Counted from the first letter of the whole stretch, positions 951 through 32,054 are shown. The stretch: DNA of 61,992 nucleotides, filler included, from Hausera hauseri (GCA_046269625.1; 10 parts of 10 records of this genome joined end to end with filler, not necessarily neighbours in it), one strand, 5' to 3'. Notes: generated by a model not told the origin, from the letters alone. A program made the numbers and translations.

Positions 951-963
951 GCCGGGTTGCCCC

Positions 964-2490: not shown

Positions 2491-2492
2491 TT

Positions 2493-4720: not shown

Positions 4721-4729
4721 AGAAGAAAG

Positions 4730-7729: not shown

Positions 7730-7829
7730 NNNNNNNNNNNNNNNNNNNNNNNNNNNNNNNNNNNNNNNNNNNNTTAATTAATTAANNNNNNNNNNNNNNN
7801 NNNNNNNNNNNNNNNNNNNNNNNNNNNNN
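7730..7829. other. Artificial contig linker. Same linker at 14818-14917, 19866-19965, 25042-25141, 29985-30084, 36396-36495, 41779-41878, 50400-50499, 57864-57963.
   Basis: N44-TTAATTAATTAA-N44, which gives stops in all six frames. Confidence 0.98.
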
Positions 7830-10800
7830 AATGACGTGCTGTAAGTAAGTGAGAAAAATGTCTTAAAGCAAGAACTATTGCCAGCAGTTCCAGATCGAAA
7901 GTTGAATATATAGTTTCTGGTGGAGTTAATTTTCGGGAAAAAAATTCTAGGGGCTGATTTTTGCCTTTGTACAACTGGTGTAGTACGGCGCCTACTTTGA
8001 TGTTTGATGCATCTGTGGTCAAAATTGTCTCAGCGTCAGGCTTAGGAAATGCTAATATTTCAACAGTATTTAGTCCTTCGCGAAGCCTATCAAACCTATT
8101 AACCAGTTGTCGTGTCCACTGGATTTTCTGGTGTTTTTTCCTCCTCTTAAGTGTGCAAAAGTTGCTGTGAGTTCCGAACAATATGGGACATATTTGTGGA
8201 CGAAATGCAAGGTTCCAAGAAAACTGCGCATTTCAGTGGTTTTCCTAGGTAATTAAACGTTTTTAAGAGACTCAACGCAATCTGGCGGAGGTGAATGGCC
8301 GTGTTTCTGAAAGAAGTTACATTTTGCAAAATTGATCTGTAGGTCGAACTGATTAAGTCGTTTGAAAATAGATCGTAGGTGTTTCTAATGTTGTTTAACA
8401 AAATGAGAAACAACCAAGATATCATCAATATATAAATGTGCAAAAGGGAAGTCTGAAAGGATTGAGTCAACGTGTCGCTGAAAAGTCTGCGCAGCATTAC
8501 AGAGACCGAAAGGCATGTACACGTACTCATAAAGACCGAAAGGTGTGGTAACTACAGTTTTCTCGATGTCTTCCGGTGCGACAGGAATTTGGTGGTAAGC
8601 TTTGGTTAAATCAATTGTTGAATAGACTGTAGTAGTATTAAGCCAATATAATATGTCTTTAATTAATGGTAGTGGATATGCATCCATTGTGGTTAAAGTA
8701 TTAAGCTGGTGGTAATCGCCACATGATCGGAAGGATCCATCTTTCTTTTGGACAACGTGAAGAGGCGAAGACCATGGGGATTTAGATCTACGGACAATAC
8801 CTGATTGTTCGAGTTCAAAAAATTCCGCCTCTACTGCCTGCCTGAGACGCGGTGACAATGGACAGACCTTTTGTCGAATTGGTCTTTGGTGTCGTGTAAT
8901 TATATGGTTGTAAATGCCGTTTATAATTGTAAAATTCCGATCTTTCTGAAGAATACGAGGACAAGAAGTATTGATGAATTGTTGTAAGCTTACGGGTAGT
9001 TGCTGGACTATTGGGAGTGTCGATGAACCAAGGTTTTTAGCAGTACTTGATGAATGTTGGTTGTATGTTGGTGGGGAATTGAGTGGAGTTTGATGTGGAA
9101 TGTTCGTGTCTAAGGCCTTATTTGATCAAATGTTGTTGTTCAATGATTTTACTAATGATCAATATCGTGAGTGTCGACATTGAGCTGTGACTGACTATTG
9201 ACATTGTGTATTTGATTTCAGACATCGTTGGTTACAATCGACTAGCAAGTTATAGTACTACAGGAAATCGGAGTCAAATATTGCTGTCTGGACGTTAGCG
9301 AAAGATAATTTGCAAGTTCCGGCAATATGAAGGGGTTGACTGGAGGCAGTTTATAACGGTTTTGTTTTAAGTGAAGAATGCTGAACCAGAAAAGAAAGTG
9401 GTAGTAATGAGTTCGCTGCACCGGTATCGATGAGAAAGTCTATGGATTGAACGTTAGAAGTGGAGATAGCAGCTTTTAGTGTAAAGACTGAAAAAGAAGT
9501 GCGTAGGCAAGAAGAAGTAGGTAAGTTGCCTTTGACAGATTCTTCCGTGAATACTGGCAGCGAAATCAGTTTTTTTTGGATTGTTGAATTTGGTCGGTTA
9601 ATATTAGTGAAACTGGAACATCTATCAGTGGTGTAGTTATGGTTAGTCTTATAGTTACAGCCTGAAATACAATTCCGGGCATTAGATCCAAATTTTTCAT
9701 GATAGATGCAAAAAATGTTATCTGAGTGTAAATGCGAGGAATAATATCTACAGCCTAAGCAGCATTTATTTGCTTTGTTATTAAATTTATGATAATAACA
9801 TATAAATGACCGCGTTGGTGACGGTGTTCGTTTTCTTGACACAGAACGTGTTGGACGAGGTAAGAAAGCATTCTGTCGATGTGAGGAAAGGTCATTCAGC
9901 TTATCATTGATGTTATTGATTGTATGTTGTAGTGCAGCATTTTCGGCGCGTAATTGGTTTAATTGGTGTTCTATAGATGTATGTCGTTGGCTGTCGTCGG
10001 TCGTGATTGCGGCTGATGTAATGGGTTGTGATTGTATTTGTAAAACTTTGTGTGCTTTATCGGCCAATTCAGCTAGTTTATCTAAAGCTGTAGAATCCTC
10101 AAAAACAGTAAGTCATGTCCTAATTTGAATAGGTAAAGCATTAAGAAAATATCGGCATAGTAGATCCGGATTGTGTTCCTTGGTGACACCCAGAGTACGT
10201 AAGTGGGCCAATGAGATGAATAAGAAATCACTAGGCTTTTGTGTCCCCATTGTGTTTTCATTAAAGAATCGTTGTATTATCGAGTTAATTGGTGGTTTTC
10301 TTGGCTTTAATACAGCATTGAACAATTGCGTATAAGGGTCAGGACGTTGAGAAATGTCCAGTAATATATGGATTGAGGTCTTTATGGAGTTTGATAGAAG
10401 GTAGAGTAAATTATGGGCTTTGGTTAACGAGTCGGTAATGCCGTTGGATTGTAGCCAAATTGATGGTAGTGGAGCCAACTCTTACTAGAGTTTTCATTGT
10501 CTGTAAAATATTCAGAGCAATGCGAAGGTGTAATTGTAGGGGTTTTATGAGAAAAGTTAGTATCGGTTGAAGGAGTTAAATGGTTTGATTTTGGATAGTA
10601 GACAATGGATTTTGGTTTTGTGGTCATCTTATCTGTGATGTCACTTATTGGTGAAGAAATCATACCGTCGCGGATTATAGGGTAGATGTGAATACAGTAA
10701 TAGTGTTATGAGGACATGATGCGTGAGAGGTCAGTTAGAATGAATCCATTGTGTGTCAAATAGAAGTCATTAAAGGCGGTGGCTTTATGAATTAGGTCAC

Positions 10801-12199: not shown

Positions 12200-14420
12200 A
12201 GGTCAAATTAGACCAGACTAATGGTCGTCGACTGTGCTTCACCTTTCATACTTTATGTACTAACATTTCCAGGGTATGGTTGAAATATGGTAACCGTTTC
12301 ATGTTTGACGTCAAGTCAAGTGCATGGGCCTCTAGGTTAATTCGCAACGGTTGTTTGATGATGTAGTGGAAAAAAAACGTTTTCGTTAACTGACATTACA
12401 GACGGAACTAGCTGACCAAATTCGTAAATCGGTATTGTCGTAACAGTAAACTCATTCGATACGGAGAACAAGGTTCCATCACTGTTTAGGACAACGAGAG
12501 GGTAAATTTTCATCTGTTTACAAGTGAGCATTATTCGTTTCGATAGGAATGAATGTCTAATCGAATGCACCTTACCGTCTACATGAACCCTCGCATTGAA
12601 CTACAGCCTAACTCAAAGTCCGTGAATACCGCAGTTCAATCACAGTGTATTTTCCATTATCACACAATTCATACTCCAGTCCACCGAGTTATTTCCATCG
12701 TAATCGAATACAAACGGTGTCCACAACAAATCCACATCATACGCAACAACCATAAGACCAGTAAGATAAGTACTCTTGCTCTTCTGTTCCGAATTCTCCT
12801 TCACCGAATTGGTGAACTTTTTTCGTTGCAACATCAACAAGTGGCCAAAGTAATTGACGAGAATACTAGATAACGGTGAACTACCTTGACCATTGTACAG
12901 ATTCTGAGTTATTTCACAGTAAATTGATGATAAATCAACGGAGATCACGCATGCCGAAAATTCGACGTAACTCTCAAGGGAGAAGATCTGACAGAATTGT
13001 AAAGATATTGATCCTGACTCTGTACAGTGTATGTTATGTAGGCATATCGATCCATCAAGGGAAAGCGTGACGAATATGTTATTGTATAAATTAACAACTA
13101 GAATCTGTGATGGTACAGGCAAACTGAAACAACTTTCATCGTCGATCTTTTTTAATAAATAATAGTCTTAATTCGAAATTCTCTTTAATATTGTTATAAC
13201 ATGAAGCACAGATGAGATTTTTAAACCACACTGCAGCACCACAACTTCCATCGACTGTTCTTGTGTTTCATTGCTGCAGTCGCAATTTTTGAGTGTTTAA
13301 ATAAAATACGGCAAAGCCTTTTATTGCCAGAAACAAAAAAGCAGTTTCCATTTCGATTGACAGCTGCAAATTTAATCGGCCAATTAACATTTATATACGA
13401 CTCTGGGTAGTCTATTCGTTCCCATGGTGCCCCGTTGAGGCCAGCTGATTCCGTCGTCGAAAGAAGAAAGAAGACGAGCTGATGAGCAATAAATGCAGTT
13501 AATTATCAGTGATCTGCTTCCCTGACAGAGCCGATTTAGCAAACTGATAAATAACAATTTCGGGTTTTTTGATTTATTTTTCGACTCCCGAATAACCCAA
13601 AATGAATAGCGCTCGGTTCCCCATTCGAAATTAGATAGTCTCAAATAAATATTCCATTCCTGTCGGAGAGAACTGAATAACAGACATTTCTGTGATTACC
13701 ACAAACTGAACCCCTTGTTTTTTCCAACACAGCCAAACAATAGTAATCCGGTGACCATTTCAACGATATTACGGCACCGGTTTCCGTTTCGGCATCGGTG
13801 TATTCATTACAACATCTTCAGTCAGTGTTGGAGACGCCGTGCTCCGGTTTCATCATCGAAATTGTAAACGACACCTTCATCCATTTTTCCACCATATGCA
13901 ATAGAACGAAATTTTAAGTTCACTGCGGAACATGTCGCTCATCGAAGATTTTCGGCCCAAACAACAGAGACTTGTTCGGTGATGAGCTTATGTTTAGGAA
14001 TGTGTAAGAAGGCCGAACGGCCATTCTGAAACAAAATCGCTACACCGCTCAAACTGGGAAACCATTCCATTGCAGAACACTGGGAATCATCTTTTGTCAT
14101 ACTGTTAACTTTGGAAAATTCCAAATCCGTAAAGAACGAAACCAATCCCAATTTAATCTGTTGACTGTACAGAACCCTGCCATCCCATTTGATACGACTA
14201 AATGAAGCGTCGTCGATAGATACGATTGAATCTTCTCGATAAATACATAAGCAATTAATTTTCTTGCTGAATGAAATACTATTCACCAAAACAATTGAAC
14301 CGTTAGAAGGTTTCAAAGGCACCGTTAAATCATTTCCAATTAGTCCACTGGCACAGATTTTTTCTCTTGTTGCCAAATGCTCGTTCAAGCACTGCCTACG
14401 AAATCTACATCGGCATCGGG
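12200..14420 (-). pseudogene. RIC1: RIC1 (Rab6 GEF subunit, Rich) pseudogene or fragment
   Basis: Collinear RIC1 motifs: FFTDLE..., MEWFPSLSGVAILFQNGRSAFL, EQVSVVWAE..ATCSAVNLKFR, TGAVISLKWSPD, SILVNYFGHLLMLQR, HSFLSKRIML...IYPLVVL, LRINLEAHAL..LPYFNHTLEMLVHKV. Stops and frameshifts present. Confidence 0.85.
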
Positions 14421-17400
14421 TTTGGACTGCATCGTTTAGCACTATTTAACAACAAACACATTTCCACCTTTCTGGGATAGTTACTGGCCAAACATTTTTA
14501 ATAAATACAGATATTGACTGATAAAGATTATTTAATTGTAACACACTAGAAACCATAAAAGTCTTATAGAAAAAGATGTAAAGCTGAAAAGCCATAAATA
14601 TAGAATCAGGAAATTTCAAACTGAGCGAATGTACCAATAAAAAACAACTGCGGGATGCCCAAAGACAACAACCAAACTCACCCGTATAATTCTGTATCTG
14701 GGGATCCAGCGAATCCGTGCATGTTATACAACAGAATCTGTACTGTTATTCTTCTGACACCATTTGTGGTACATAACCGTGACCCCTTTATGCCTTGCGA
14801 TCTTTGTAAATAAATTGNNNNNNNNNNNNNNNNNNNNNNNNNNNNNNNNNNNNNNNNNNNNTTAATTAATTAANNNNNNNNNNNNNNNNNNNNNNNNNNN
14901 NNNNNNNNNNNNNNNNNATTCCTCAGTCTATACGAATGAATTCCTCACTCGGGACACTAGATTATATGTTGGCATCGGGGTCGTGTGTATAATTAAACAC
15001 CTAACCTTTATTTTGTGTCAACATGTAACATAATAGTAACAATTGATGTATAATATACTAAGTATACTGTCACTATTAATCCTATGGTGGGATAATGAGT
15101 CACTCTATTTTAGGTATGATATATATTTATACAATATTTTCTATCATATCAATATACATTAGGTAATGAATTCTAAATGTTCGACTTAAAACTATTTTTC
15201 CAAAAATTCATCAATAAAATTAACCTTATCATAAAGGATGGTAATAAGTCCTCGCAGGTAAAAAGGGATGGTAATAAATCCTCCTAGCTAGGTATGACAT
15301 CTTTATAAATTACGTTAATTTCGGACTATATTTTACTAAGGTGTAATTTGATGTAATCCACCTAGTAAAGTTGTATGTTTATTTGTTGCCTCCAATAAAT
15401 ATAAACATATTTTACTGATGTCTATATATTTTGCATTCCTTTTTCTTGCTTTCAAAGTTAATATTGTGACATGTTAAGTACACCATCGCGTGGGTACACC
15501 ATGAATGTTCATTTAATTTACTCTACTTCGACAATATATAAATTAGTTTCAAAATATTAAAAGTTGCTTTTCCTAAATAGAATCGTATTTTATCCCTGAC
15601 GTGATCATCCATAATAATTGCGTTACATTTAGAATTATTTAACAAATATTTCTTTCTATTACTAATTTCACTATGTGCCATTATATGTCCGAGTAAAATA
15701 AAGTATCAGAAAATCAGCGAAGGAGTAGTGCATCGACGTACTTCTCTAAATATCTTTAAAAGAAGCCTTTTGGAAAGAAAACAATTTTCGCAAGGGATCA
15801 AGTCCATATTAATCCTTCTAAAAATCATAATTGTAAATTACACGTAAGTAATTTCAAAGTTTGCATTCCGAATATTGAAATCTTACGGAACTTTCAACAA
15901 AATTATATAGTATTCTACTCCCAATATTATCACAAGCATTTAGAAATATATGTTGGAAATGGTAACTAATATAATGTATTTTTCCTTTGCTTAGATAGGA
16001 ATATTTATTTATATTCCGCGTTCCTACACAAACCTTCTTTTCCTTAAAATTTTATCCATCATTAGGGTAAGAATCAGTCCACTAAACTCTTCTCCCTACA
16101 CACATGCCAACTGTTTGATTTCGGGAGTTTAATCACATTCTCTTATCCAAGGAACTTTGACGAATAAAGATAATGAGAATTACAAANNNNNNNNNNAATA
16201 ATCTGTAAGCAAGACCCACAAACGTCAACAGTATTACCACTAATTCTTATTCAATTATGATTATTTATGATGACCTTCATAGAGATACCGATCTCAAGAT
16301 CACTAGTATATTGTTTCAAATATACACCAACAATCCTTAACAAAGTAACCGTCCTTCTATTACTTACAAAGGAGTCTTCTGGTGTCATTACTATTTTATT
16401 CGTCAGTTGATTCATGACGCAGTGTTGCTTCCGGCCGGTCTTCCAGTGTTCATGTAGAACCTACATATAATAGTACCTTTCATCCAATATAATAAAGAGA
16501 ATTTTAAGTTCTAGACGCAGTTATGTTGATTTCATGAGCGTCTCTAGCGTATCTAAAATTTTCATTGAACCTTTGGTATTCTGGCAAATCTCAAAATTTC
16601 GTTCACAATTAACGAGTAATATTAGATTCCCTTTTTATAAGAGTCACGGAATTCGCTTATTAGAGTCTAAAATCATTTAACAACGTAATCCTCAAGAATC
16701 CGTTCAACATATACGATTTGAAAATCAAATTCCGCTTTCCTGTACAATGCAAACATTTAGAGTACACCAAATCAATATAAACCAGTATCACGATATTTTA
16801 TCTAACAGCATGCTAGTTATGTTCCGGTTGTCAACGATTTGTAGCGTACGCTCCATTTCTCACCGGAATATTTAGCATTAAACTCATCATATCCATCCAG
16901 ATCCACTTTATTTTCCGATTCATATCAATCTAAACTGAAAGCCTTTAATCATTCCCAGCAATCTGACTTTCCATTTTTTGTATCAATCATTTATTACACG
17001 ACAAAACGGTACAAGCGACTATATATAAAGGTATGCGGCAAAACAACTTCAATTATATTGATATATAAACATTAGGAATCAAATTAATGATTTTTATTTA
17101 CCATTGTGTCCTTCCATTTGATTAACATTGCCAGAAGCTTGATCGGCCATTTCGTTGAAATGATGAATTAAATTTATCTGGATAGGACGAATAAATTCGG
17201 AGTGACTCGTAGAACTTCAATATCTTTATTGTGTTGATAATATTTTAAAATAGCTTATAAAGTTCTGATATCATCAAGTCATTACCTGTCGGTAATGATT
17301 TACTTTTACTCTTGAATCTAATTTAATTTTTTCGTGTGTGAATTTCTTGTTGCCGTGTCTCATCTTTTAACTGGTTTATATACCAGTAGGTCATCACTAA

Positions 17401-17931
17401 ACGCATGATGACATTTCTCAAAATCAATTTTCATTTTTGACACTAATCTCAAGTCGCCAATTTGCTACAAATGACATTTTCAAAATCAGTTTTTATCTGA
17501 CACTAATCGCTTATTCTAATTAGATTTTACATTAATTGCTGAATCCAATAACACTAATCCAATTTACAATTACTTATTCCAATTAGATTTGCCACTAATC
17601 ACTCATTCCAATGACTCTAATCCAATTTACAAAAAAAGATAATTTGTGACTATTTTCTAAATTGTTATTCAAATAACATTAATTCAATTTACAAAACAAA
17701 ATACTAATTTACTAAATATATTTTAATCATAAATTGTTACTGCCGCATCACATTAACGTGGTTAACAATTTCATACAAACAACAACAAAGATGTGACACC
17801 CATAACTTAGGGTTTAACAAAAGAAGAAAGAATGAAAGAGAGGAAATTATAAAACAAGTGCTAATATCACGTATTGTTTTGCGTAATGTTTTTGTTACAA
17901 TGTTTGTCACGTGGCTTAACCGATCCTAACA

Positions 17932-19865
17932 TTTCTGCCCTTATGAGACAGGATTCGGTCCTCCGGATCACTTTGGGTACTGACAGCGATGAAGCTGAGA
18001 TTTCTGGGTCTAATTGTCAATGTCGCATCATTTACTGGATTCATCTAATGGCATAATCGTTGGGTACGGTTGTCGCAGGTATATGGTAAATGGTAGTAGA
18101 CTGATGGTTGACGGCAGTAAGGGCATGATATACCCTTATGAAATGTCATTCGAAATGCATCGTGTGGATCAATGGATTGAAGAAATTGAGAACGAAGTTT
18201 GCTGAAACATGTTGCACATAGATTATGATTTCATTGGAATTGGACCACTGTTATTCGTTCAGTAAGGCAAATCGTACACTCGTAAGTTGGAAGTTGATTG
18301 TAGAAGAGGATTTGCAATGTTGCCCAAAGGTCAAGCGGGGCTAGGTCGGAAATAAAGTCGATTTAACATCTATTTAGAACTGGGAACCAATCTTCTTGTA
18401 ATAATGATGGCAATGGGGGACTGAGATATAGTGGGTGTTGGAGTTATTGAAGGTGCAGGTACTGGCAATTCAGATAATGGTCTGATAATCCGCTCAGGAT
18501 GATAACGTAGATGCGGGATTGCAGATGGTTGATTCCAGTTAATAACAATGGGAACAGTATTCGGCATTACAGCAACTAAATCTGTAGGCTGTTTTATTAT
18601 GTTTTTGGCATAGACAACATATATGGAATTGTAAATATAGCATGGAGAAAGGGGTTGATACACCCCAAGAGTTTTAGCGTCCAGTAAGGATTGGTCAGCA
18701 TCAGATGGGAATGCGTCATGCTGGATACAATACTTAATTTCATATTTACAGATTGGGTAATAAGGCATAGGGTAAGCTTGTGATCGGGCTCGATCCATAC
18801 AATATAAGCAAAGAATATGCACGCATGGTGTTAATCTGTACACTACATTGAGGATTGCTCTGCATTCCATACATTATTGGAGGTCCGAAAATAAGTAGGA
18901 TCAATTAAGATTTAATTCAATGGTATTAAGATCTATACAACTGTCAGTATCTTCAATATACTCTGAGTTCGATAAGTAGTTATACAACTGTACTAATGAT
19001 GACGTATACGTATGGATGATGGTAGTATGTAATAATTGTTCACTTAAACGGATTATAAATACTGGATCTGTCGAGAAATTTGTAGTAATGGAGTGACAGC
19101 TAAGATTGAAGAAGCCATTGGTATTACTAGTAGGTAGTTTCAATGAGCATAAAAGTAGATCGAATTGTGTCGTTATAATAAATTTATACTTCAACATATT
19201 TTGTACGAGAGGTAAAAAATCTTTGTTATTGATTTTATTTAGGGTAAGATCATCTGTTATACCCGAAAAGAGTGTTCTCCAGTCAATAATTTTATTTCGG
19301 ATCTCGTCTTTATGATCCAATATAGCGATATCAATGATGGTTTGATTGATAATTGTCGGATTGGGCTGGGTAGTAACGTAATTATAGGCTAGGAAGGTGA
19401 ATGAGGGTTCTAAATCTGAAAGATAATCCTTCTGGTACTGAAACGTATTCATTTACTGATGAGAGTGGTTTGGTTATACGGATTAATTGCTCGTAGTCTT
19501 CATTGTGGGTGTATATAAGTTTTCGTTGTATCACTTATACAGCATATGTACAGTCGTTCGACGAAGAAATTGCAAAAGACAATAATTCCACAGGAGGGAT
19601 GGTAATAATGCCGCTACAGTTATCGAATAGTTCGTGATCAACATCGAATATAGGATCATTACAGTTAATATCGATAGTCAATTTGCCACTGATGAGATGT
19701 ATAGCTACAGTATCGAATTTTCGCGGCTGGTCGGTAAGAATCAGTTGAGATAACGAATTGGGGATATCAGTGGTTGTCTGTTGAATACACATTTGTCTGG
19801 AATAGAGCTGGCGTTTCTCAGACTTTAAGCTATTTGGGATAGCTGTTTTATTAGGAAAAACATAA
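17932..19865 (-). mobile_element. 3' end of a Gypsy-type element: unknown domain X, pseudo-exonuclease, RING, Pro-rich tail, degenerate PPT; LTR probably starts at 17931
   Basis: Homologous to the C-terminus of ORF 25142-29281. AAGGGCAGAAA|TGTTAGG on the minus strand. Confidence 0.7.
18745..18873 (-). pseudogene. C3HC4 RING finger
   Basis: CMEC-x12-CVHILCLYC-x12-(Y)PIC, with the seventh ligand mutated. Same frame as the upstream exonuclease-like ORF across two stops. Confidence 0.75.
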
Positions 19866-19965: not shown

Positions 19966-22900
19966 GTAATTTACGTAGTTTTGTAGTTTTTCTATCATTT
20001 TTTGGCCTTTTGTCTCGCCTATCTTAATTTTGAATTTTTTCATTTTTTTTTTGGCCCGGTCCCACCTTAACAAAATTTAGTTTTTCCACGAAAAAATTTG
20101 AAAATTTTCTGGATTTTTCTAGTTTGATTTTTTTGCGTGACTTACTTAATTTTGAAGTTTTTTTTACTATTTTGTGGTGTTTTGTCTCGCCTATATTAAT
20201 TTTGAATTTTTTCAATTGTTTTGGCCCGCTCCCTCTTTACCAAAATTTAGTTTTTCCATGAAAAAATTTGACATTTTTTGGTCTTTTCTAATTTGATTTT
20301 TTTGCGTGACTTACTTAATTTGGAAGTTTTTCTATCATTTTTTGGTCTTTTGTATCGACTATCTTAAATTTGTTTTTTTAAATTTTTTGGCCCGCTCGCC
20401 AGTTGCCAAAACTTGGTTTTTTGACGAAAATATTGAAATTTGTATGGTCTTTACTAATTTGAGTTTTTTGCGTGACGTACTTAATTTTGAAGTTTTTCTA
20501 CCATTTTTTGGTCTTTTGCTTTGGCCCGCTCCCCCTTTATCCAGATTTAGTTTTTCCACCAAAAAATTTGAAAATTTTCTGGTCTTTCCCAATTTGAGTT
20601 TTTTGCGTAACTTACTTACTTTCGAAGTTTTTCTCTCATTTTTCGGTCTTTTGTAACGCCTATTTTAATTTTGAATTTTGTCCCATTTTTTGTCCCGCTC
20701 GCCCCTTACCAAAATAATTTTTTCCACGAAAAAATTTGAAAATTATCTGGTCTTTTCCAATTTGAGTTTTTTGTGTGACTTCCTTACTTTTGAAGTTTTG
20801 CTATCACTTTTTGGTCTTTTGTCTCGCCTATCTTAATTTTGATTTTTTCAATGCTTTGGCCCGATCACCCCTTACCAAAATTTCGTTTTTCCACGAAAAA
20901 ATTTGAAAATTGTCTGGTCTTTTCCAATTTGAGTTTTTTGCGTGACTTACTTTCTTTTGAAGTTTTTCTATCATTTTTTGGTCTTTTGTAACGTCTATTT
21001 TAATTTTGAATTTTGTCAATTTTTTTGGCCCGCTCCCCGCTTACCAAAATTTAGTTTTTCCATGAAAAAATGTGAAAATTATCTCGTCTTTTCCAATGTG
21101 AGTTTTCTGCGTGACTTACTTACTTTTGACGTTTTTCTAACATTTTTCGGTCTTTTTTCTCGCCTATTTTAATTTTGAATGTTTTCAATTTTTTGGCCCA
21201 CTCCCCCTTTACCAAAATTTAGATTTTCCACGAAAAAATGTGAAAATTTTCTGGGCATTTCCAATTGAGTTTTTTGCGTTACTTCCTTACTTGTGAAGTT
21301 TTCTACCATTTTTTGGTCTTTTGTCTCGCCTATAATAATTTTGAATGTTTTCAATTTTTTGGCCCGCTCCCCCCTTATCAAGATATAGTTTTTCCACCCA
21401 AAAATTTGAAAATTTTTTGGTCTTTTCTAATTTGAGTTTTTTGCGTAACTTACTTACTTTCGACGTTTTTCTATCATTTTTTGGTCTTTTGTAACGTCTA
21501 TTTTAATTTTGGATTTTGTCAATTTTTTTGGCCCGCTCCCCGCTTACCAAACATTTGTTTTTCCATGAAAAAATGTGAAAATTATCTCGTCTTTTTTTAA
21601 TTTGAGTTTTTTGCGTAACTTACTTACTTTTGACGTTTTTCTAACATTTTTCGGTCTTTTGTCTCGCCTATTTTAATTGTGAATGTTTTCAATTTTTTGG
21701 CCCGCTCCCCCTTTACCAAAATTTAGTTTTTTCCACGAAAAAATGTGAAAATTATCTCGTCTTTTCCAATTTGAGTTTTTTGCATGACTTACTTACTTTT
21801 GACGTTTTTCTATCATTTTTTATTCTTTTGTCTCGCATATCTTTATTTTGAACTTTTTCATTGTTTTCGCCCGCTCCCCTTACAAAAATTTGGTTTTTCC
21901 ACGAAAAAATTTTAAAATTTTCTGGTCTTTTCCAATTTGCGTTTTTTGGGTAACTTACATACTTTTGAAGTTTTTCTATCATTTTTTTGGTATTTTGTCT
22001 CGCCTATATTAATTTTGAATTTTTTCAATTTTTTGGTCCGCTCCCCCCTTATCAAGATATAGTTTTTCCACCAAAAAATTTGAAAATTTTCTGGTCTTTT
22101 CCAATTTGAGTTATTTGCGTGACTTACTTATTTTTCAAGTTTTTCTACCATTTTTTGGTCTTTTGTCTCGCCTACATTAATTTTCAATGTTTTCGATTTT
22201 TTGGCCCGATCCCCCCTTACCAAAATTTGGTTTTTCCACGAAAAAATTTGAAAATTGTCTGGTCTTTTCCAATTTGAGTTTTTTGCGCAACTTACTTACT
22301 TTTGAAGTTTTTCTATCATTTTTTGGTCTTTTGTCTCGCCTATCTTAATTTTGAATTTTTTCATTTTTTTTTTTTTTTTGGCCCGGTCCCCCCTTAACAA
22401 AATTTAGTTTTTCGACGAAAAAATTTGAAAATTTTTTGGTCTTTTCCAATTTGAGCTTTTTGCGTAACTTACTTACTTTCGAAGTTTTTCTATCATTTTG
22501 TGGTCTTTTGTAACGTCTATTTTAATTTTGAATTTTGTCAATTTTTTTTTTGGCCCCCTCCCTGCTTACCAAAATTTACTGTTTCCATGAAAAAAATGTG
22601 AAAATTATCTCGTCTTTTCCAATTTGAGATTTCTGCGTGACTTACTTACTTTTGACGTTTTTCTAACATTTTTTCGGTCTTTTGTCTCGCCTATCTTAAT
22701 TTTGATTTTTTCAATGCTTTGGCCCGATCCCCACTTACCAAAATTTGGTTTTTCCACGAAAAAATTTGAAAATTGTCTGGTCTTTTCCGATTTGAGTTTT
22801 TTGCGTGACATACTTACTTTTGAAGTATTTTCTACCATTTTTTTGGTATTTTGTCTCGCCTATATTAATTTTGAATTTTTTCAATTTTTTTGGCCCGCTC

Positions 22901-25041
22901 CCCCCTTATCAAATATAGTTTTTCCACCAAAAAATTTGAAAATTTTTTGGTCTTTTCCAATTTGAGTTTTTTGCGTAACTTACTTACTTTCGAACTTTTT
23001 CTATCATTTTTTTGGTCTTTTGTAACGTCTATTTTAATTTTGAATTTTGTCAATTTTTTTGGCCCGCTGCCCGCTTACCAAACATTAGTTTTTCCATGAA
23101 AAAATGTGAAAATTGTCTCGTCTTTTCCAATTGGAGTTTTCTGCGTGACTTACTTACTTCTGACGTTTTTCTAACATTTTTCGGTCTTTTGTCTCGCCTA
23201 TTTTAATTTTGAATGTTTTCAATTTTTTGAACCGCTCCCCCTTTACAAAAATTTAGATTTTCCACGAAAAAATGTGAAAATTTTCTGGGCATTTCCAATT
23301 GAGTTTTTTGCGTTCCTTACTTAATTTTGAAGTTTTTCTACCATTTTTTGGTCTTTTGTCTCGCCTATGTTAATTTTGAATTTTTTCATTTCAATTGTTT
23401 TGGCCCGCTCCCTCCTTACCAAAATTTAGATTTTCCAAGAAAAAATTTGACATTTTTCTGGTCTTTTCTAATTTGATTTTTTTGCGTGACTTACTTAATT
23501 TGGAAATTTTTCTATCAATTTTTGGTCTTTTGTCTCGACTATCTCAATTTTGAATTTTTTCAATTTTTTTGGCCCGCTCCCCAGTTACCAAAACTTGGTT
23601 TTTTGACGAAAAAATGTGAAAATTTTCTGGGCATTTCCAATTTGAGTTTTTTACGTGACTTACTTAATTTTGAAGTTTTTCTACCATTTTTTGGTCTTTT
23701 GTTTTGGCCCGCTCCACCCTTATCCAGATTTAGTTTTTCCACCATAAAATTTGAAAATTTTCTGGTCTTTCCCAATTTGAGTTTTTTGCGTAACTTACTT
23801 ACTTTCGAAGTTTTTCTATCATTTTATGGTATTTTGTAACGCCTATTTTAATTTTGAATTTGGTCCCATTTTTTGGCCCGCTCGCCCCTTACCAAAATTT
23901 AGTTTTTCCACGAAAAAATTTGAAAATTATCTGGTCTTTTCCAATTTGAGTTTTTTGCGTAACTTACTTACTTTCGAAGTTTTTCTATCATTTTTTGGTC
24001 TTTCTTGTTGCCTATTTTAATTTTGAATTTTTTCAATGTTTTGGCCAGGTCCCCCCTTACCAAAATTTAGTTTTTCCACGAAAAAATTTGAAAATTGTCT
24101 GGTCTTTTCCAATTTGAGTTTTTTGCATAACTTACTTACTTTTGAAGTTTCTCTATCATTTTTTGGTCTTTTGTCTCGCCTATGTTAATTTTGGATTTTT
24201 TCAATTTTTTTGGCCCGCTCCCTCCTTACCAAAATTTGCTTTTTCCACGAAAAAATTTGAAAATTGTCTGGTCTTTTCCAATTTGAGTTTTCTGCGTGAC
24301 TTACTTACTTTTTACGTTTTTCTAACATTTCTCGGTCTTTTGCCTCGCCTATTTTAATTTTGAATGTTTTCAATTTTTTGGCCCGCTCCCCCTTTACAAA
24401 AATTTGGTTTTTCCACGAAAAAATTTTAAAATTTTCTGGTCTTTTCCAATTTGCGTTTTTTGGGTAACTTACATACTTTTGAAGTTTTTCTATCATTTTT
24501 TTGGTATTTTGTCTCGCCTATATTAATTTTGAATTTTTTCAATTTTTTGGTCCGCTCCCCCCTTATCAAGATATAGTTTTTCCACCAAAAAATTTGAAAA
24601 TTTTCTGGTCTTTTCCAATTTGAGTTATTTGCGTGACTTACTTATTTTTCAAGTTTTTCTACCATTTTTTGGTCTTTTGTCTCGCCTACATTAATTTTCA
24701 ATGTTTTCGATTTTTTGGCCCGATCCCCCCTTACCAAAATTTGGTTTTTCCACGAAAAAATTTGAAAATTGTCTGGTCTTTTCCAATTTGAGTTTTTTGC
24801 GCAACTTACTTACTTTTGAAGTTTTTCTATCATTTTTTGGTCTTTTGTCTCGCCTATCTTAATTTTGAATTTTTTCATTTTTTTTTTTTTTTTGGCCCGG
24901 TCCCCCCTTAACAAAATTTAGTTTTTCGACGAAAAAATTTGAAAATTTTTTGGTCTTTTCCAATTTGAGCTTTTTGCGTAACTTACTTACTTTCGAAGTT
25001 TTTCTATCATTTTGTGGTCTTTTGTAACGTCTATTTTAATT
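19966..25041. repeat. Tandem satellite, ~167-172 bp monomer, about 30 copies
   Basis: Recurring TTGTCTCGCCTAT...TTGGCCCGCTCCCC...TTCCACGAAAAAATTTGAAAA; anchor spacings of 172, 168, 168 and 167 bp. Confidence 0.97.
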
Positions 25042-25141: not shown

Positions 25142-28100
25142 GTCATAGCAGCCATATGGAGTATCACAGAGCAAGAAGAGTCATTACTACGAAAACAACG
25201 AAGTGACGAACAAATCAAACAAATTAAAGAATATTTAAAAAGGAAAACAATACCAAGTGATGTTAATCTTTATACCCATTTAAAACAGTTTGCTGAAAAC
25301 TATGAAACAAAGAATGATATATTGTATTATAATCACAAAGGAAAACTAGCTATAGTTGTTCCTCAAGAAGATATAAAGTTGCTGCTGACACAGTACCATG
25401 ATGGTATGATGGGAGGACACCAATCAATAAAAAGGACCTTAGGAAGATTGAAGAGAAAATATTATTGGTACACCATAACTAAGGATGTCCAAGATTGGTG
25501 TAAGAGTTGCCCAGTCTGTGCCACTAGAAAGAATACCGGTTCAAAAATTAGAGTCCCTCTCAAGCCAATAGAATGTCCACCGGCTCCTATGGAATTTTCA
25601 GCAATGGACATCCTGGGTCCATTGCCTCTAACGATTAATGGAAACAAATACATGTTGGTGTTTGTTGATCTATTTTCTAGATGGCCAGTTGTAATACCAA
25701 TACCAGATCAAAAGGCTCAAACTATTGCTCAAGCCTTCGTCGAAGAAATTGTTTTTAACTATGGTGCACCAACTAAATTACTAACGGATCAGGCACCCAA
25801 TTTCACAGGAGAAGTTATGGCAGAAATATCGAAAATATTTCAAATATTACAACTAAAAACTACTCCGTATCATCCTCAAACGAATGGAACAGTGGAAAGA
25901 TTCAACGGTATCTTAACTAACATGTTGGCCACTATGGTCAATGAACGACAAGATGATTGGGACGAATATATCAAGCCATGTTTATTTGCCATTAGAAATA
26001 CAATCCATCCGGCAACGAAAGAAACTCCCTTCTATTTGATGTATCTCAGAGATACTCACATGCCAATCGATTTAGACTTTAAAATGCCTGTCTCCCATTT
26101 GAAGAACGTGACGTATAAAGAGTTATTAGAAGAAAAATTAGGGTATGTATGGAGTTTGGCCTCACGTCATACGAAAATGTGTCAAAAAGAATATAAAAAC
26201 CGTTACGATGAAAAGGCTAAACCACATGACCTTAAACCTGGAGACAAAGTTATGCTACACACGCCATTAAGTAAGAAAGGCAGAACACCAAAGTTAGATA
26301 GACCATATAAAGGTCCCTATATGGTCCAGAAAGTAGATGAAACTAACATCTACTTAAACAAAAACAAAAGAAATAAAATGAATCCAATAAAAGTCCATGT
26401 GAACAGATGCAAGCCGGCACCAATAGAATCAAAAATAAGAAATGAGAGTTTTAGCCCATCGCTAATGGCAACACTGATGATGCTAATTTTAGTAACCAAT
26501 GTATCAGCCCAGTCCTTGGATGTGAATTATAAGGCCGTACAGGTTGGAAAATACCCTTGTATAAAAATTACGGCTAATCGAAACTTAACAATGGATGAAT
26601 ATATACACATATTCATATCGAAATTGCCGATAGTAGAAAAGGCAACACCAGAGAATTGTGATCTATATTATAACCATTCAATACACACCTGCTGTGGACT
26701 TTCATTCGGAGAAACGTACAGGATTCAATACGCAACGGGGAAAAGCGACCAGAGTTACAGAACATATTTCTCATACCCTGGTACCACACATTATTTTCAC
26801 CGACCATACTTTCTTATTTCATTCTATGCTAAGGTCATGAAGAATGGACCTTGCGTAACGGCAGAACCAGATGTCATAATTACAAGGTATACAAAGTTCA
26901 AGTATATAATATTTGACGGAACTAACAGTATAGACTGTGAACCGAATTATCAAGATCCATATAAATGTTGCCCTATCGTTTTTAACAAACAATATACGAT
27001 ATACTACTGGACCACGTATAACGGTTATACATGGTCAAAAACAGCAGATGGTCCAGAGATAACTGTAAGATCTCCGGTAAAGGTAACCCCTATTTCGACA
27101 ACCAAAACAATTGCCTCAGTAACAAAACCAAGTATACCAACTATATTACAAAAAGTAGTAACTACACCAATAATAGAACCTAAGAAGGATATTAAAGAGT
27201 TGGATATAATTATCCAACCAACAAGTCACTCATTAATTATTACAGTGCTCAACCTGAAGAATACAAACATAAAATTCGAGTGCAACCTCAACCACAGAGT
27301 GATTAGCGAAGGAGTTTTAACTCCCGAAGAACCAACATCTGTATGTATGTTCTTAAAATCTGACACAAATTATAAAGTCGTCATAACAGAATTAGATGAC
27401 GAAGGAGAAAAATTACGAACAGTTTCTCGGACCGAAAAGACCTTAAAACTAATAACAACTACCTCAAAAGCTATGCAAAAAGTAATTACACAAAAACTGG
27501 AACAAAATTCGAACAAAAATCTTTGGATAATTAGTACGTTATGCGTCCTCCTAATATTACTAGCCATATTGTTACCTTTAGTAATTTATTGTTCGAAAAT
27601 AAGACAACGACAGCATAGGATAAGGGAAATGTTAGATCAATTAAAAATTTTAAGGGAAGATTCCCAGGTATCGTCACAAGACGTAAGTGCGCCTTTCCTA
27701 GAAAACCAACGACAAGTTGAAAGACTTATCGACCAAGAGCGGCAGATCCAACCGTTGAAAGACACAACCATATGTCTTTGCATAAAAATCCATGACCAGG
27801 CCGCAAAATTCCTAGCGACCTATATTAAAAAACGACAATCGAAATATGATAAAATCCTTTTTTGTAAAACCGCTTGGCTAATATTAATATTTTTATTTTT
27901 AGTCCAAGAAGGTGCAGAACGAACTGAAAGACCCAACTCCTTCTATAACCATATTTTATCCAATTTATGGGCCACCTCCAATAAAGATTATTGCTATTAT
28001 GGAAGAGCCGTTTTTATTCCCAACAATCTCAAGGGCTATTCAGTCCAGCAAAGAAGTAGCCTTATAATCAAGGTCCGACAAAGTTCGACTAATCTCTCTG

Positions 28101-29281
28101 ATCTCATCGATACCTCCGGACACACCTATGCCATATATATCTCTGTGGCTAAAGGAACCATCCAGCTCAAAAGCAAGTCCCACTCCAATGGAATCACAGA
28201 TGTAATGGAAGTTTTAACCCGCGTAACAATCCGTCTGGACCCTCGATTGTACGCAAATGCCACGATTACCATACGGACATGCCGAGAAGTGTTCCCAATA
28301 ATCTTTTTAGAAGTCATAAAGAAGGACTTAATCCCACGCTTAGATTACGAAATTCCCAAATACTCTACTCCCAAACCAAAAGAACTTGATGTAGAACAAG
28401 GACTGTCATTCGCAAGAAGACTAATAACATCAAAAGAGGAAATGTTAATAATGGCCGTAAATCCAATATATCTATTCACCCCTATCAGGAATACCGAAAT
28501 GACTACGGTGGAAGTAACCCTAATGGACTTAAATGGAAAAGTTATTTTGGATGAGATTCTATGTCCTAGAGAAAAGATCGATAATTACAACAGCCATGTA
28601 ACCGGACTAAAAGAAGATAATATTATTGGGAAAAAGGACTCGTATCATGAAGAACCTTTCATCAGGAAAATAATCATCGGGAAAATAATCATAGGCATTG
28701 ATGTTTACCACATCTTTGCTTCTATTTTTAGATATGACTACAACAATTTATTGGGGATTAGAGAATTGTTGTACCACGATAATGTTAATCCCCAACGCAT
28801 ATTCTCAGCCAAACAGATCTTCACCCAGTACAATAATAACATATACCCTCAAAGAACAAAAGAGAAAGCAATTACAATATTAAAGATTTACAACTCCATT
28901 CCAGAGTATCAAAATGAACAATTTCAAACTCCAATGGATGTGCAAGAATCTACAGACACTTCATCAATTGCCACCTGTTCAACATCTACCCAATCCGCCA
29001 ATAATCAAATATCAATTTCTTCAAGAGACAGTCATATTAATTTGAATCCATTAACAATAGCAAGTTCCTCAGAATCGATTGTCGTTGACCTAACCAAAGC
29101 CTCAAAGAAGAAAAAGAAAATTCCAAAAACCGAAACAATAACCCTAAAGAAACAGATTAAAAAAAGAGGACGACTACTCCATATCAAGTCTGTTGACTAT
29201 CAGGACTCTAATGGTGTTATTGAAGCTTACCCTCTGATGCTGTGGACAGCATCGTCTAAGGAGGGAGAAGATGTGCAGTAG
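25142..29281 (+). CDS. Gypsy pol 3' end, 5'-partial: integrase fused in frame to signal peptide, three FN3-like domains, TM, domain X and REX4-like pseudo-exonuclease
   Basis: Open from contig start. HDGMMGGH...CPVC; AMDILGPLP; LTDQA; YHPQTNGTVERFN; YKGPY; MATLMMLILVTNVSA|QS; LWIISTLCVLLILLAILLPLVIYC; VEVTLMDLNGKVILDEILCPREKIDNYNSHVTGL. Confidence 0.9.
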   Translation, partial: VIAAIWSITEQEESLLRKQRSDEQIKQIKEYLKRKTIPSDVNLYTHLKQFAENYETKNDILYYNHKGKLAIVVPQEDIKLLLTQYHDGMMGGHQSIKRTLGRLKRKYYWYTITKDVQDWCKSCPVCATRKNTGSKIRVPLKPIECPPAPMEFSAMDILGPLPLTINGNKYMLVFVDLFSRWPVVIPIPDQKAQTIAQAFVEEIVFNYGAPTKLLTDQAPNFTGEVMAEISKIFQILQLKTTPYHPQTNGTVERFNGILTNMLATMVNERQDDWDEYIKPCLFAIRNTIHPATKETPFYLMYLRDTHMPIDLDFKMPVSHLKNVTYKELLEEKLGYVWSLASRHTKMCQKEYKNRYDEKAKPHDLKPGDKVMLHTPLSKKGRTPKLDRPYKGPYMVQKVDETNIYLNKNKRNKMNPIKVHVNRCKPAPIESKIRNESFSPSLMATLMMLILVTNVSAQSLDVNYKAVQVGKYPCIKITANRNLTMDEYIHIFISKLPIVEKATPENCDLYYNHSIHTCCGLSFGETYRIQYATGKSDQSYRTYFSYPGTTHYFHRPYFLISFYAKVMKNGPCVTAEPDVIITRYTKFKYIIFDGTNSIDCEPNYQDPYKCCPIVFNKQYTIYYWTTYNGYTWSKTADGPEITVRSPVKVTPISTTKTIASVTKPSIPTILQKVVTTPIIEPKKDIKELDIIIQPTSHSLIITVLNLKNTNIKFECNLNHRVISEGVLTPEEPTSVCMFLKSDTNYKVVITELDDEGEKLRTVSRTEKTLKLITTTSKAMQKVITQKLEQNSNKNLWIISTLCVLLILLAILLPLVIYCSKIRQRQHRIREMLDQLKILREDSQVSSQDVSAPFLENQRQVERLIDQERQIQPLKDTTICLCIKIHDQAAKFLATYIKKRQSKYDKILFCKTAWLILIFLFLVQEGAERTERPNSFYNHILSNLWATSNKDYCYYGRAVFIPNNLKGYSVQQRSSLIIKVRQSSTNLSDLIDTSGHTYAIYISVAKGTIQLKSKSHSNGITDVMEVLTRVTIRLDPRLYANATITIRTCREVFPIIFLEVIKKDLIPRLDYEIPKYSTPKPKELDVEQGLSFARRLITSKEEMLIMAVNPIYLFTPIRNTEMTTVEVTLMDLNGKVILDEILCPREKIDNYNSHVTGLKEDNIIGKKDSYHEEPFIRKIIIGKIIIGIDVYHIFASIFRYDYNNLLGIRELLYHDNVNPQRIFSAKQIFTQYNNNIYPQRTKEKAITILKIYNSIPEYQNEQFQTPMDVQESTDTSSIATCSTSTQSANNQISISSRDSHINLNPLTIASSSESIVVDLTKASKKKKKIPKTETITLKKQIKKRGRLLHIKSVDYQDSNGVIEAYPLMLWTASSKEGEDVQ
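29258..29271 (+). promoter_or_regulatory. Polypurine tract; putative 3' LTR starts at 29272
   Basis: AAGGAGGGAGAAGA|TGTGCAG overlapping the ORF end. An alternative PPT lies at 29808-29817. Confidence 0.65.
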
Positions 29282-30520
29282 TCTAAAATAAACAATTTGA
29301 TTGAAATAACGATCGTTTATTTGACTTTCAGAGTGATTCAAAATAGACTGATTATTTGGCTTTTAAATTGAATAATAAATTATCCATGAACTAAATGTAA
29401 TTTAATTTATTCTTGATCCATGATTAAATTGATTTCTGTTTTCTTTTGGTCTGCAATAATTGGTTTTTATTTATCATATAAATTTCCTGTGGTGGTAGAT
29501 AAGTATATATACTGGTGTCATTTACACAATTTTTATAACTTTTTGACGAGGACAATTCTCATGATGATGAACCATGCTTATGACAATTGTGAGTTTTTAT
29601 TTCATTTGTTTATTGCGTTTTGATTGTCGTTAGATTATCGTATTCATAATTGTGATTAAATATTTTATCTTAATCTTTTTCTTATTTTCATTTATAAATA
29701 ATTAATTAAGAGTATTGTATTGTAATAGGCATAAAATAACACAAATATATAAACCCTTTTGGTATACCTTCCTTTAATACAGGTCGGTTGTTTAATCTAC
29801 GATAAATAAAGGGGGAGTGACGTCGGTGTACCTCCCGACCGAGCTCATACATTAAGGAAAAGTAAATTAAACTTAATCCTTGAATTTCGGCAGACCCACA
29901 GGCTGCCGAATACCTTGATTAATTAAACAGAACTTGGGACAAGGAGAGGGCCCAAGTTAAGTATCGATAGTATAAGTTTAAGGTNNNNNNNNNNNNNNNN
30001 NNNNNNNNNNNNNNNNNNNNNNNNNNNNTTAATTAATTAANNNNNNNNNNNNNNNNNNNNNNNNNNNNNNNNNNNNNNNNNNNNTACTTCAGGAGATAAA
30101 TTGTGAAATTCCTAACAGAAGTACCCACAGGCTGCACTGGAGGTGCTACAGCTAATACTGCTGCCGCTAGTTGTGTTTGCATATCACTACAGAAATTTGC
30201 AAAATTGTTTAAGATGGCAGTAACCTTCTTTAGTCTATGCTATGCTTTAACTAGCCATTAGCTCATTTGTTCAGAGAACTAAAACAGGTAAGATATTATT
30301 TGTTCAAAACCTTTCCAGAGAACCCCACTTTAAAGTACTTTTTAAAGATACATTTTCCAATTTCAAAAAACAACACAAATATTTTAAAAAAGTTAGGTCG
30401 TACTCAGACCAGGAAATTCCTTTGGTCCGCTTGTTTGGTCCGAACAAAAAGTAGGCTTTATATCTATTTTTGTTTTGAATAATTTATAATTCTGAATATT
30501 TTTAAAGTATTTTCATTCAG

Positions 30521-30733
30521 ACAGTTATGTAAAAATAAATGTCTGTACCGATGCTGGCTACCAATTAGCTCGTTTCAATACTAAAAAAGTCTCAAATGAA
30601 ATGCATCCTTCTTTCAATGAAACGTTTTCCGTTGATGTTCCACATTTTCAAATAAATGGGATCACAGTACTCATAGCTCCATATAATAAAGTTAGTTTGA
30701 TAAGCAAGGATATGATCGGATGGATTGCAATGG
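30521..30733 (+). CDS. Internal exon encoding a C2 domain, synaptotagmin-14/16-like
   Basis: ttcag| ... |gtatgt; DSYVKINV...HPSFNETFSVDV...YNK.SL..KDMIGWIAMG resembles SYT14/16 C2B. Confidence 0.75.
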
Positions 30734-31142
30734 GTATGTATGTTTCTTTAATTACCTTTTGTTTAATAAACTTTTCACATGCACCTGTTGTTTCAAATGA
30801 GAATGATTATTTATATGAAATAGATTTCGAATTGTAAATGGGTTGTATAATCAAAAATGGACAAAATGACTGATGCTACAAATGATCAAAACTAATAAAT
30901 CATGGGTACCTAAATACAAAGACCAATGAAACGATTACATATATTTCTATCCTAAAACGTTGTGTTTGCCGAAACATCAATCAAAAATGTTGCAGAATCT
31001 TTTTAATACTTTTTATTTTTCATACAAATATACTGAAGGAAGGAACAATTATAATAATCAATCAATAAACAAAAGGAAACTGAAATTGTTTGAAAATAAA
31101 ATAATGAACATTTTTCAACGAATTGGATGAATATGCATTTAA

Positions 31143-32054
31143 CACATTGACGGACACATGCGTCTATAGTCGTCAAAGCGAAGTTCACTATGTGGCATGA
31201 CGGCAATAGCCGTCCAAAATGAAACGGTCGTTTGTAGACACTGCAGCTATAGCGGCACAAATGTGCATTTATCGGCGTACAAGTGTCATGTTTTGGAAAC
31301 AATTTTTTTAAGTTGAATTTCGTTTTCCACCTGTTACACGACTTTACAGCTTCAGTATGTACGCGGCTGTGAAGGGAGTAGTGCGATGTAGCACTGTGGA
31401 ATTCTTACTACATCTTTAAAGAAAAGACAAGTTCTCAAATGAGGTTTATAGAATACAGGGAAGCAATCATACGATCTCTAACTGGTATAGATTATAAACA
31501 GGATGGAAGGTCTTTGGTTCAATTTAAACGTGCACGAATCCAAACCAATGAAATCAACTACAATGGAACACAGCATTTTCCTGAGAAAATTTCTCCTGAA
31601 AATTACCAGCGAAAAACATATTTTCAGCGTTGTAAACAATGTTATAAACAGGGAATAAGGAAGGAAACATCATATTGCTGCAAGAATTGCATGTCAAAAC
31701 CTGCACTGTGTCCTGCACCATGCTTTGAAACATGGCATACCGATAATAATGTGTAATAATTATAAACTTATAATAAATTTTTTTGTCATTTATTTATTTT
31801 TGTTTGATTATAAACTAACATTTCGTGTAAAACTCCCAAAAGCACTTTGTTGCACACAAAAAATTGCTTATTTGAGTCATTAAACCTGTCATTTACGCTT
31901 TTAAAATTTTGCTGTTATAGCCGCCATCGTCCCGTTACTTAGTGTCTGGAGTCCGCTGGCGCCATGACGATTATAGCGGCAACCTAATTAAAGGTGTTGA
32001 ATTAATCACAATTAATCAATAACTATATACTTGTTCCTACTGTCCGTCAATGTG
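31143..32054 (+). mobile_element. Non-autonomous piggyBac, internally deleted, retaining the transposase C-terminal Cys-rich domain (31439-31756)
   Basis: TTAA on both sides; perfect 14-bp TIR CACATTGACGGACA / TGTCCGTCAATGTG; RCKQC..KETSYCCKNC..PALC.APCFETWH. Confidence 0.92.

Follow-up and report, generated by a model that had tools for sequence, protein, structure and literature searches.

The locus comprises positions 17932-19865 of the window (the whole stretch of DNA analysed, 61,992 nt). It is read on the minus strand and closes a contig (14918-19865) that is bounded by N spacers. The window as a whole consists of short contigs with such spacers between them; it is AT-rich and holds many remnants of mobile elements together with fragments of animal-type genes. 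Reading 17932-19865 on the minus strand takes three frames and meets 7 stop codons between 19864 and 17932, and the stretch is the decayed tail of a dead copy of an element. For the searches its pieces were joined with the letter X at each break. The features of the locus, and of a long open reading frame (ORF) on another contig, are as follows:

19538-19864, minus strand: cupin domain (earlier named X), truncated by the contig edge at its 5' end; family profile match at 19861-19541, E 1.7e-8
19399-19537, minus strand: linker, with a frame shift near 19418-19399
18904-19398, minus strand: ISG20/REX4-like DEDDh pseudo-exonuclease; profile match at 19518-19081, E 3.8e-6
18901-18903, minus strand: natural stop codon of the cupin-pseudonuclease gene, where the relatives P0055, P0056 and P0057 end
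18748-18873, minus strand: RING finger 1, a degenerate C3HC4 finger in which 7 of 8 ligand positions are recognisable; BRCA1 RING E 0.006
18397-18531, minus strand: Pro-rich stretch, 10 Pro per 45 residues
18114-18278, minus strand: RING finger 2, C3HC4; Pfam zf-C3HC4_3 E 3.2e-6
17930-17942, minus strand: polypurine tract (PPT)-like site plus TG; purine tract 17942-17932 with one pyrimidine, at the repeat edge
25142-29281, plus strand: long ORF on the other contig, intact, 1379 codons from the contig start
about 27962-28330, plus strand: cupin of the long ORF, in frame
about 28440-28903, plus strand: pseudo-exonuclease of the long ORF, in frame

We regard this anatomy of the locus as very likely correct. 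The cupin piece lacks about 24 codons up to the Met of its intact relatives P0055-57, with which it shares 56-59% identity, and it ends at a stop codon (19537-19535). In the linker, the insertion and deletion variants of other copies concentrate at 19418-19421, at the frame break. The pseudo-exonuclease piece is 60-70% identical to P0055-57 and carries two short in-frame deletions relative to them.

The original prediction had taken the locus as a diverged second member of a cargo family that includes the long ORF. All four quoted motif pairs were found; they are collinear, on separate contigs, and lie in two reading frames within 17932-19865. The significance of the pairwise alignment was marginal. 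When the pieces were compared one by one with the long ORF by BLASTP, none matched (best E 2.6 and 0.78), and a Smith-Waterman alignment of the X-joined piece with the long ORF covered about 290 residues at 26% identity, with a score reached by 80 of 1000 shuffles with BLOSUM62 and by 4 of 1000 with BLOSUM45. Profile alignment, in contrast, was significant. The X domain and nuclease part of the long ORF were searched by phmmer against 1.84 billion representatives (E up to 0.001), which resulted in 45 hits. Of these, 37 were retained as the family; the eight excluded were P0008 and P0011, whose matches were due to repeats, and six nucleases of cellular type that lack the X domain. A family profile was built from 25 outside proteins, with no sequence of the window included. 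In a six-frame search of the window this profile recovered the long ORF (E 4e-48) and both halves of the locus at the E values listed above, the cupin part with its IPNxLK-type N-terminal motif among them; nothing else was significant (next match E 2). The X-joined piece reached 52 bits on the profile, compared with a maximum of 10.4 in 2000 shuffles (1893 scored).

A chance match between locus and long ORF could be read from the insignificant BLASTP values and from the BLOSUM62 shuffles (p about 0.08). It is refuted by the independent profile matches and by the intact relatives P0055-57, whose scores with the long ORF are 96-121, a level reached by 0 of 500 shuffles, and whose E values on the family profile are 1e-36 or better. 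Comparison of P0055-57 with the catalytically intact subfamily by hhalign gave a probability of 98.5 and E 1.9e-15 over 309 columns. The likelihood of a chance match is thus negligible, and the membership proposed for the locus was borne out. The independent profile matches both halves, and the cassette of cupin and pseudo-exonuclease is therefore real and old. It had been held to be an old family trait and not a misassembly, in agreement with its presence in 37 family proteins (of the 45 hits) and at seven loci.

Longer forms of the cassette were sought by word-based searches, which yielded 0 of 1634 candidates among proteins of 758-2414 aa with the long-ORF region and 0 of 3541 candidates among proteins of 1524-4350 aa with alignment A4, both being weak evidence. 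No relative of the cassette was found in viral contigs (four queries) or in prokaryote genomes. In the ESM Atlas the two-domain piece matched RNase_T clusters at 0.89-0.90, and the cupin part gave no usable match.

The fold of the cassette was predicted by AlphaFold from the long ORF (37 alignment rows, mean pLDDT 91, pTM 0.86); a model of P0055 from a 3-row alignment had a mean pLDDT of only 37.7. The modeled long-ORF cassette consists of two domains. The second has its best match in ISG20 (Z 16.5, rmsd 2.4, 150 aligned), which also matches the nuclease half by sequence (E 1.8e-4). The first is a cupin barrel, which matches the CENP-C cupin at Z 9.9 and, tied with it, bacterial cupins at Z 9.6-9.7. 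According to these models, the domain earlier named X is a cupin (double-stranded beta-helix) barrel and the nuclease fold is ISG20-like DEDDh. Among the cupin columns one His is nearly invariant, being replaced by Ser in the long ORF and by Tyr in two others, and an HxH or HxD...H metal motif was not present in the barrel columns. Because only one His is nearly invariant, the barrel is probably a binding or dimerization module and not a metal enzyme. An AlkB-like enzyme was considered, since AlkB-bearing viral replicases occurred among the fold matches, and was ruled out by the lack of the metal motif. The ISG20/ISG20L2/REX4-type DEDDh exonucleases (PDB 1wlj, 7yw5) share the fold of the nuclease half and are its best sequence match; in contrast to them, the subfamily of the locus carries a cupin at its N-terminus and none of the five catalytic residues. 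In the cellular-type proteins P0025 and P0036, a REX4-like nuclease domain is present four times in tandem, and the catalytic motifs of some of these domains are changed.

Not all of the family is dead, as catalytically intact members occur beside the pseudo-enzymes. The D-E-D-H-D residues are kept in 21 of the 33 family proteins that span all five catalytic columns and altered in 12, one of which (P0010) is a poorly aligned fragment. In the locus copy and in P0055-57 all five positions (ExoI D and E, ExoII D, ExoIII H and D) are replaced, in P0055-57 by alike residues (A/T, N, Q, T/S and Q), while the long ORF retains ExoII D alone. The first catalytic Asp was predicted to be replaced by Asn in both the locus and the long ORF. 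One alignment to the PolC HMM does put Asn on this Asp, whereas the family and profile-profile alignments place Ala in this position and Asn in that of the Glu; under either register both residues are lost in both sequences. Since the catalytic loss is common to the intact relatives P0055-57, the pseudo-nuclease of this subfamily is a selected state and not a product of decay.

In a tree with the catalytic columns, 13 of 14 pseudo-enzymes grouped together (support 91/86), and the same grouping had support of 55/76 without these columns. When P0055-57 took the place of the locus copy, the pseudo-enzymes were split in 200 of 200 bootstrap trees; the AU test did not reject a grouping of P0055-57 with the long ORF and P0006 (p 0.29). 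In pairwise comparison the locus subfamily is closest to active members, with a score of 181 for P0017 versus 108 for the long ORF. Short or redundant partial rows were excluded from the trees (P0010, P0024 and P0047; also P0034 in the trees without catalytic columns and with P0055-57), and the P0055-57 tree further omitted P0012, P0023, P0026, P0027, P0031, P0040, P0043 and P0048.

The intact relatives also fix the borders of the gene. With the nuclease-RING piece as query, three proteins among 1629 candidates were found (P0055-57, 349-357 aa, E 1e-46 or better). Each matches only the nuclease part of the query, and none has a RING. This search was restricted to proteins of 202-646 aa, and longer fused relatives could therefore not appear. 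All three start at a Met that would lie about 24 codons past the contig edge, and all three end exactly at the stop codon 18903-18901. At position 18902 most aligned contigs (depth 7527 of 7671) have another letter, which still gives a stop codon; this position is among the 40 of 603 differences listed. Because P0055-57 start at their own Met and end at this stop, we conclude that the cupin-pseudonuclease is here a stand-alone gene of about 350 aa, as judged from sequence, fused neither to an integrase nor to a RING; the ends are those of called ORFs, and read-through is possible. The upstream integrase and transmembrane region that had been expected in frame is not compatible with the Met of these relatives. 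P0055-57 are acidic (K+R 18-23, D+E 39-44), and nucleic-acid binding is therefore somewhat disfavored.

A C3HC4 RING was said to follow the nuclease in frame. Two RINGs are present: the region 18873-18748 is a weak one, and the stronger one at 18278-18114 had been missed. RING1 matches Pfam RING models at E 0.0017-0.004, under the cut-off. It is directly behind a second stop codon (18876-18874), with a Met at 18870-18868. The Pro-rich stretch lies between the RINGs and is followed by stop codons at 18372-18370 and 18333-18331 and by the second frame change. RING2 scored 27.3 bits with zf-C3HC4_3 (Pfam cut-off 27) and E 7.2e-6 with RING_XB3. It has Cys or His at seven of the eight ligand positions, a stop codon inside the motif (18233-18231) and another at 18047-18045. 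Likeness between the two RINGs was not significant, as 73 of 2000 shuffles reached their score. By their fold family, both would be E3 ubiquitin ligases.

The original prediction had combined a nucleic-acid binder and an E3 ligase in one protein, which would bind nucleic acid and ubiquitinate bound host defence factors; the stops would then reflect decay or be read through. RING1 does lie in the frame of the nuclease, 9 codons past its end, and one distant family protein, P0049 (870 aa), joins a cupin, a dead nuclease and a C-terminal C3HC4 RING (Pfam E 2.6e-7) in a single ORF. A host protein of similar logic is PML isoform 1, described in the available part of PMC13659232 as carrying a RING and a dead DEDD-fold domain (PXL), a pseudo-exonuclease binding G-rich nucleic acid. 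This is an analogy only: PML-1 is a host restriction factor with an exonuclease-III/TREX-like domain in one polypeptide, whereas the locus is element-encoded, ISG20-like and made up of separate genes. Against one fused protein, the reading of the locus changes among three frames with 7 stops, and the stop 18903-18901 is the gene end in 3 of 3 intact close relatives, ahead of both RINGs, and is still present in most other copies. Furthermore, a RING was absent from 43 of the 44 hits scanned, P0049 being the exception, and the RING of P0049 does not adjoin its nuclease: it sits more than 300 residues beyond it. RING2 with its tail was considered as an ortholog of the P0049 RING and rejected, as the likeness was no more than that of generic RINGs (104 of 2000 shuffles as high); neither RING of the locus shows detectable orthology to it. 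Neither the continuous frame nor the combined protein could thus be upheld for the locus, and we consider the fused protein quite improbable.

The extent of the repeat was followed with contigs of one run (X1), which is possibly the source of the window itself and hence not independent. On 17922-19865, 5724 contigs of this run aligned, 2974 of them less than 90% alike. Summed contig depth, which does not equal copy number, was 1096-22729 in every bin of 17922-19865 versus 2.7-32 on the flank, and it dropped from 22729 (17922-18044) to 14.5 (17799-17921) at the repeat edge. One contig (17647-17979, 1 difference) spans this junction, and 3% of the contigs continue into unlike sequence. Depth was continuous across the border between nuclease and RINGs (5198, 3851 and 2017); contig joints across this border, all of single contigs with short sides, were left unused. 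The stretch 17932-19865 is therefore one abundant, diverged repeat, which includes the cupin, the nuclease and the two RINGs and stops at the purine tract with TG. The predicted PPT-like site was confirmed, as the tract at 17942-17932 followed by TG coincides with the repeat edge. A PPT followed by TG, as at the start of a 3' LTR, is thus present at 17942-17930; the LTR itself was not identified. A similar tract with TG follows the cupin-nuclease gene in locus L002 and is also found at 29804-29819. After the long ORF, 29804-29984 (plus strand) contains a clean polypurine tract, then TG and what is probably the beginning of a 3' LTR.

Since one repeat spans the nuclease and the RINGs, the RINGs are cargo of the element. 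The RING block could still be a separate insertion or a captured host fragment peculiar to the locus copy, as no intact relative of the block was recovered, RING1 is weak and the two RINGs are unlike each other. The high depth continuing across the border up to the PPT-like edge argues against this. Terminal repeats sought inside the block were not found, the RINGs lie on the same strand, and RING ORFs neighbor the cupin-nuclease gene in the related loci L004 and L006. We regard a separate insertion, which had been named as an outcome that would overturn the prediction, as very improbable.

Depth rises several-fold just before the PPT-like tract, at 17950-18080 (71002 at 17973), as if this part were shared with a more abundant, perhaps non-autonomous repeat. 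Tandem repeats of 62-63 bases at 17505-17714, shortly past the PPT-like site, possibly lie inside an unrecognised LTR.

The cassette occurs in different gene contexts. The long ORF encodes, in this order, an integrase (Pfam H2C2 and rve), hydrophobic segments, beta-rich repeats, a transmembrane segment, the cupin and the pseudo-exonuclease. Its integrase is 47% identical to that of locus L001 and 45% to that of L003, compared with 30-32% to another Gypsy integrase in the window. At seven metagenome loci, all of one assembly and of the catalytically intact branch, the cupin-nuclease gene is a separate ORF; among the loci and relatives examined, fusion behind an integrase occurs in the long ORF only. 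In L001 and L003 an upstream polyprotein of more than 3000 aa contains a mononegavirus-type fusion glycoprotein, protease, RT, RNase H as well as an integrase, and its end is a membrane-anchored tail arranged like that of the long ORF. The env lies in frame before the protease (Monjiviricetes_fusion E 8.7e-84 in L001 and 5.4e-94 in L003) and is not visible for the locus copy. The pol order protease, RT, RNase H, integrase is present in L001 and L003, and an integrase in the long ORF; the contig of the locus ends at 19865 without pol, and neither pol nor an LTR was seen on it. From the PPT-like edge and the context of its relatives (seven loci of one assembly, intact branch), we infer that the locus copy belongs to Ty3/Gypsy. 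In L004 and L006 separate RING, IAP-like RING and TRAF ORFs are located upstream of the cupin-nuclease gene.

Some further details of these loci were noted. The runs of accessory ORFs ahead of the intact cupin-nuclease gene (L004 226-4637, L006 54-2475) include RING-H2, IAP-like RING, a full TRAF (RING, zinc finger and MATH) and coiled-coil proteins. In L007 (1344-6782) gag lies 2.1 kb downstream of the cupin-nuclease gene in the same orientation, an order that would be expected of tandem copies or of a circle with one LTR. The polyproteins of L001 (1-9037) and L003 (1-9621) have two aspartyl-protease-like segments, in L003 with a membrane-anchored insert between them. Behind the integrase and in frame, the long ORF (26462-27960, plus strand) and the polyprotein ends of L001 and L003 each show a hydrophobic segment, two beta-rich repeats, a stalk rich in Thr and a membrane anchor. 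These tails have no significant mutual sequence match and belong to no Pfam family; they may represent a second surface protein besides env.

Several known systems resemble parts of this arrangement. In planarians, the giant Gypsy elements named Burro/GYPSM1 (Arkhipova and Yushenova 2019, PMC6431247, as far as its available text goes) have env in frame upstream of pol. The env of Burro is mononegavirus-like, and the elements also carry MATH/TRAF, BIR and ubiquitin-like domains; MATH/TRAF is found in the polyprotein or in an accessory ORF, and domains alternate between separate ORFs and fusions. An arrangement of this kind is displayed by L001, L003, L004 and L006, with env in L001 and L003. 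The link of this cargo to ubiquitination and apoptosis is already published (PMC6431247; Grohme 2018 and Jurka 2007 cited therein). MATH/TRAF cargo was found only in the relatives L004 and L006, and the BIR, BCL2 and ankyrin domains of Burro were not seen in the partial loci; the likeness to Burro is drawn from its published description. The accessible text gives no exonuclease or cupin for Burro, and the term exonuclease refers there to Terminons. A 3'-5' exonuclease as a separate accessory ORF downstream of pol is described for the Juno and Vesta LTR elements and the Terminons of bdelloid rotifers (Rodriguez et al. 2017, PMC5408684). According to the same source, in the sections available, the rotifer ORF3 is DEDDy, RNase D-like, with intact catalytic residues and no cupin or RING, whereas the family of the locus is of the DEDDh ISG20/REX4 type behind a cupin. 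GAG-ENV-POL errantiviruses with an HSV/gB-type env have env before pol in Nematoda, Bryozoa and Platyhelminthes (Chary and Hayashi, PMC13524379, main text), as is likewise the case in L001 and L003; exonuclease, RING, ubiquitin and Burro have 0 occurrences in this main text. A cupin with an exonuclease joined to a Gypsy element or retrotransposon was absent from the literature searched, which was mostly open-access and did not include Repbase; supplements on Burro or errantiviruses could list such an ORF. The cupin-DEDDh gene is thus apparently an undescribed, old cargo family of giant Gypsy elements.

The locus is probably the decayed 3' accessory region of an abundant Ty3/Gypsy element of a Burro-like, env-carrying clade, with a stand-alone cupin-pseudonuclease gene and one or more separate RING genes. 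Of two transcribed units ahead of the PPT, the first would be the gene of about 350 aa for a cupin barrel and an ISG20-like DEDDh pseudo-nuclease under selection, and the second the downstream gene or genes for two C3HC4 RINGs with the Pro-rich linker between them. In live elements the products of both units may act as accessory proteins on the host cell. The ancestral, intact nuclease most likely would have trimmed 3' ends of RNA or single-stranded cDNA, and such trimming would remove by-products of replication or silencing-triggering small RNAs. A non-catalytic binder or decoy may be what the pseudo form is. Together with this clade's genes for TRAF and IAP-like RING proteins, the RINGs, as E3 ligases, would tap ubiquitin signaling, and pseudo-nuclease and RINGs may share one pathway, as separate proteins.

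We propose such a counter-defence role tentatively, as one that is quite possible. Less likely, although to be taken seriously, is that the accessory proteins serve the replication of the element and that the pseudo-nuclease binds or shields the ends of its RNA or cDNA in export, packaging, or primer and end processing. A comparable case is CERV, an accessory protein of the C. elegans LTR element Cer1 with a G-protein-like domain that is not expected to be active; it is needed for export of the genomic RNA (PMC10309623, available portion). Similarly, the DEDDy cargo is proposed by Rodriguez et al. to process the 3' ends of element RNA (PMC5408684, in the part available), and the best-matching cupins include dimerization domains such as that of CENP-C. 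A role in replication leaves the recurring RING, TRAF and IAP-like neighbors unexplained. Counter-defence by separate proteins is therefore ranked above a role in the RNA handling of the element, and both are ranked above one fused degrader. CERV was also considered as a precedent for RING fingers and discarded, as its "rings" are multimers according to the same partial source (PMC10309623).

An improbable extension of the counter-defence reading is that the cupin and ISG20-like gene, widespread among giant Gypsy elements with env, split into working nucleases and conserved pseudo-nucleases and that the dead form became a substrate adaptor for RING ligases of the element, fused in P0049 and encoded by neighbors at the locus. 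If true, this would represent a retrotransposon system similar to Vif or ICP0, by which small-RNA or antiviral factors of the host are removed. The catalogue of accessory genes in invertebrate LTR elements is poor, and a function is known for almost none of these genes. What is new here is a conserved cupin-DEDDh gene whose active and dead branches are matched and which occurs as a free ORF, fused behind an integrase and membrane anchor, and fused to a RING; intact natural proteins of each kind exist in public data. The surprise is limited by the locus being a dead copy and by nuclease cargo and ubiquitin-related cargo each being already known in Gypsy elements.

Other features were observed in the window. 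The entire contig 19966-25041 is satellite DNA with a unit of about 168 bases and copies 84-87% alike. Host exons were found at 12640-14445 (minus strand; RIC1 beta-propeller, E 6.8e-12) and at 30496-30837 (plus strand; C2 domain, E 3.8e-7). Other decayed elements at 1-7729, 7774-10481, 31382-31756, 43191-47873 and 59364-59765 comprise Bel/Pao with RT and peptidase A17, two further copies of Gypsy, a zinc finger of piggyBac type and a transposase of Tc1 type. An ORF of 395 codons at 38857-40044 (minus strand) resembles FBXL2 leucine-rich repeats in its first 45 residues (E 0.03, weak) and is followed by an ORF of 171 codons (38393-38908, minus strand) upstream of gag-like Gypsy remains; neither belongs to a Pfam family, and the 395-codon ORF is possibly another ubiquitin-related cargo.
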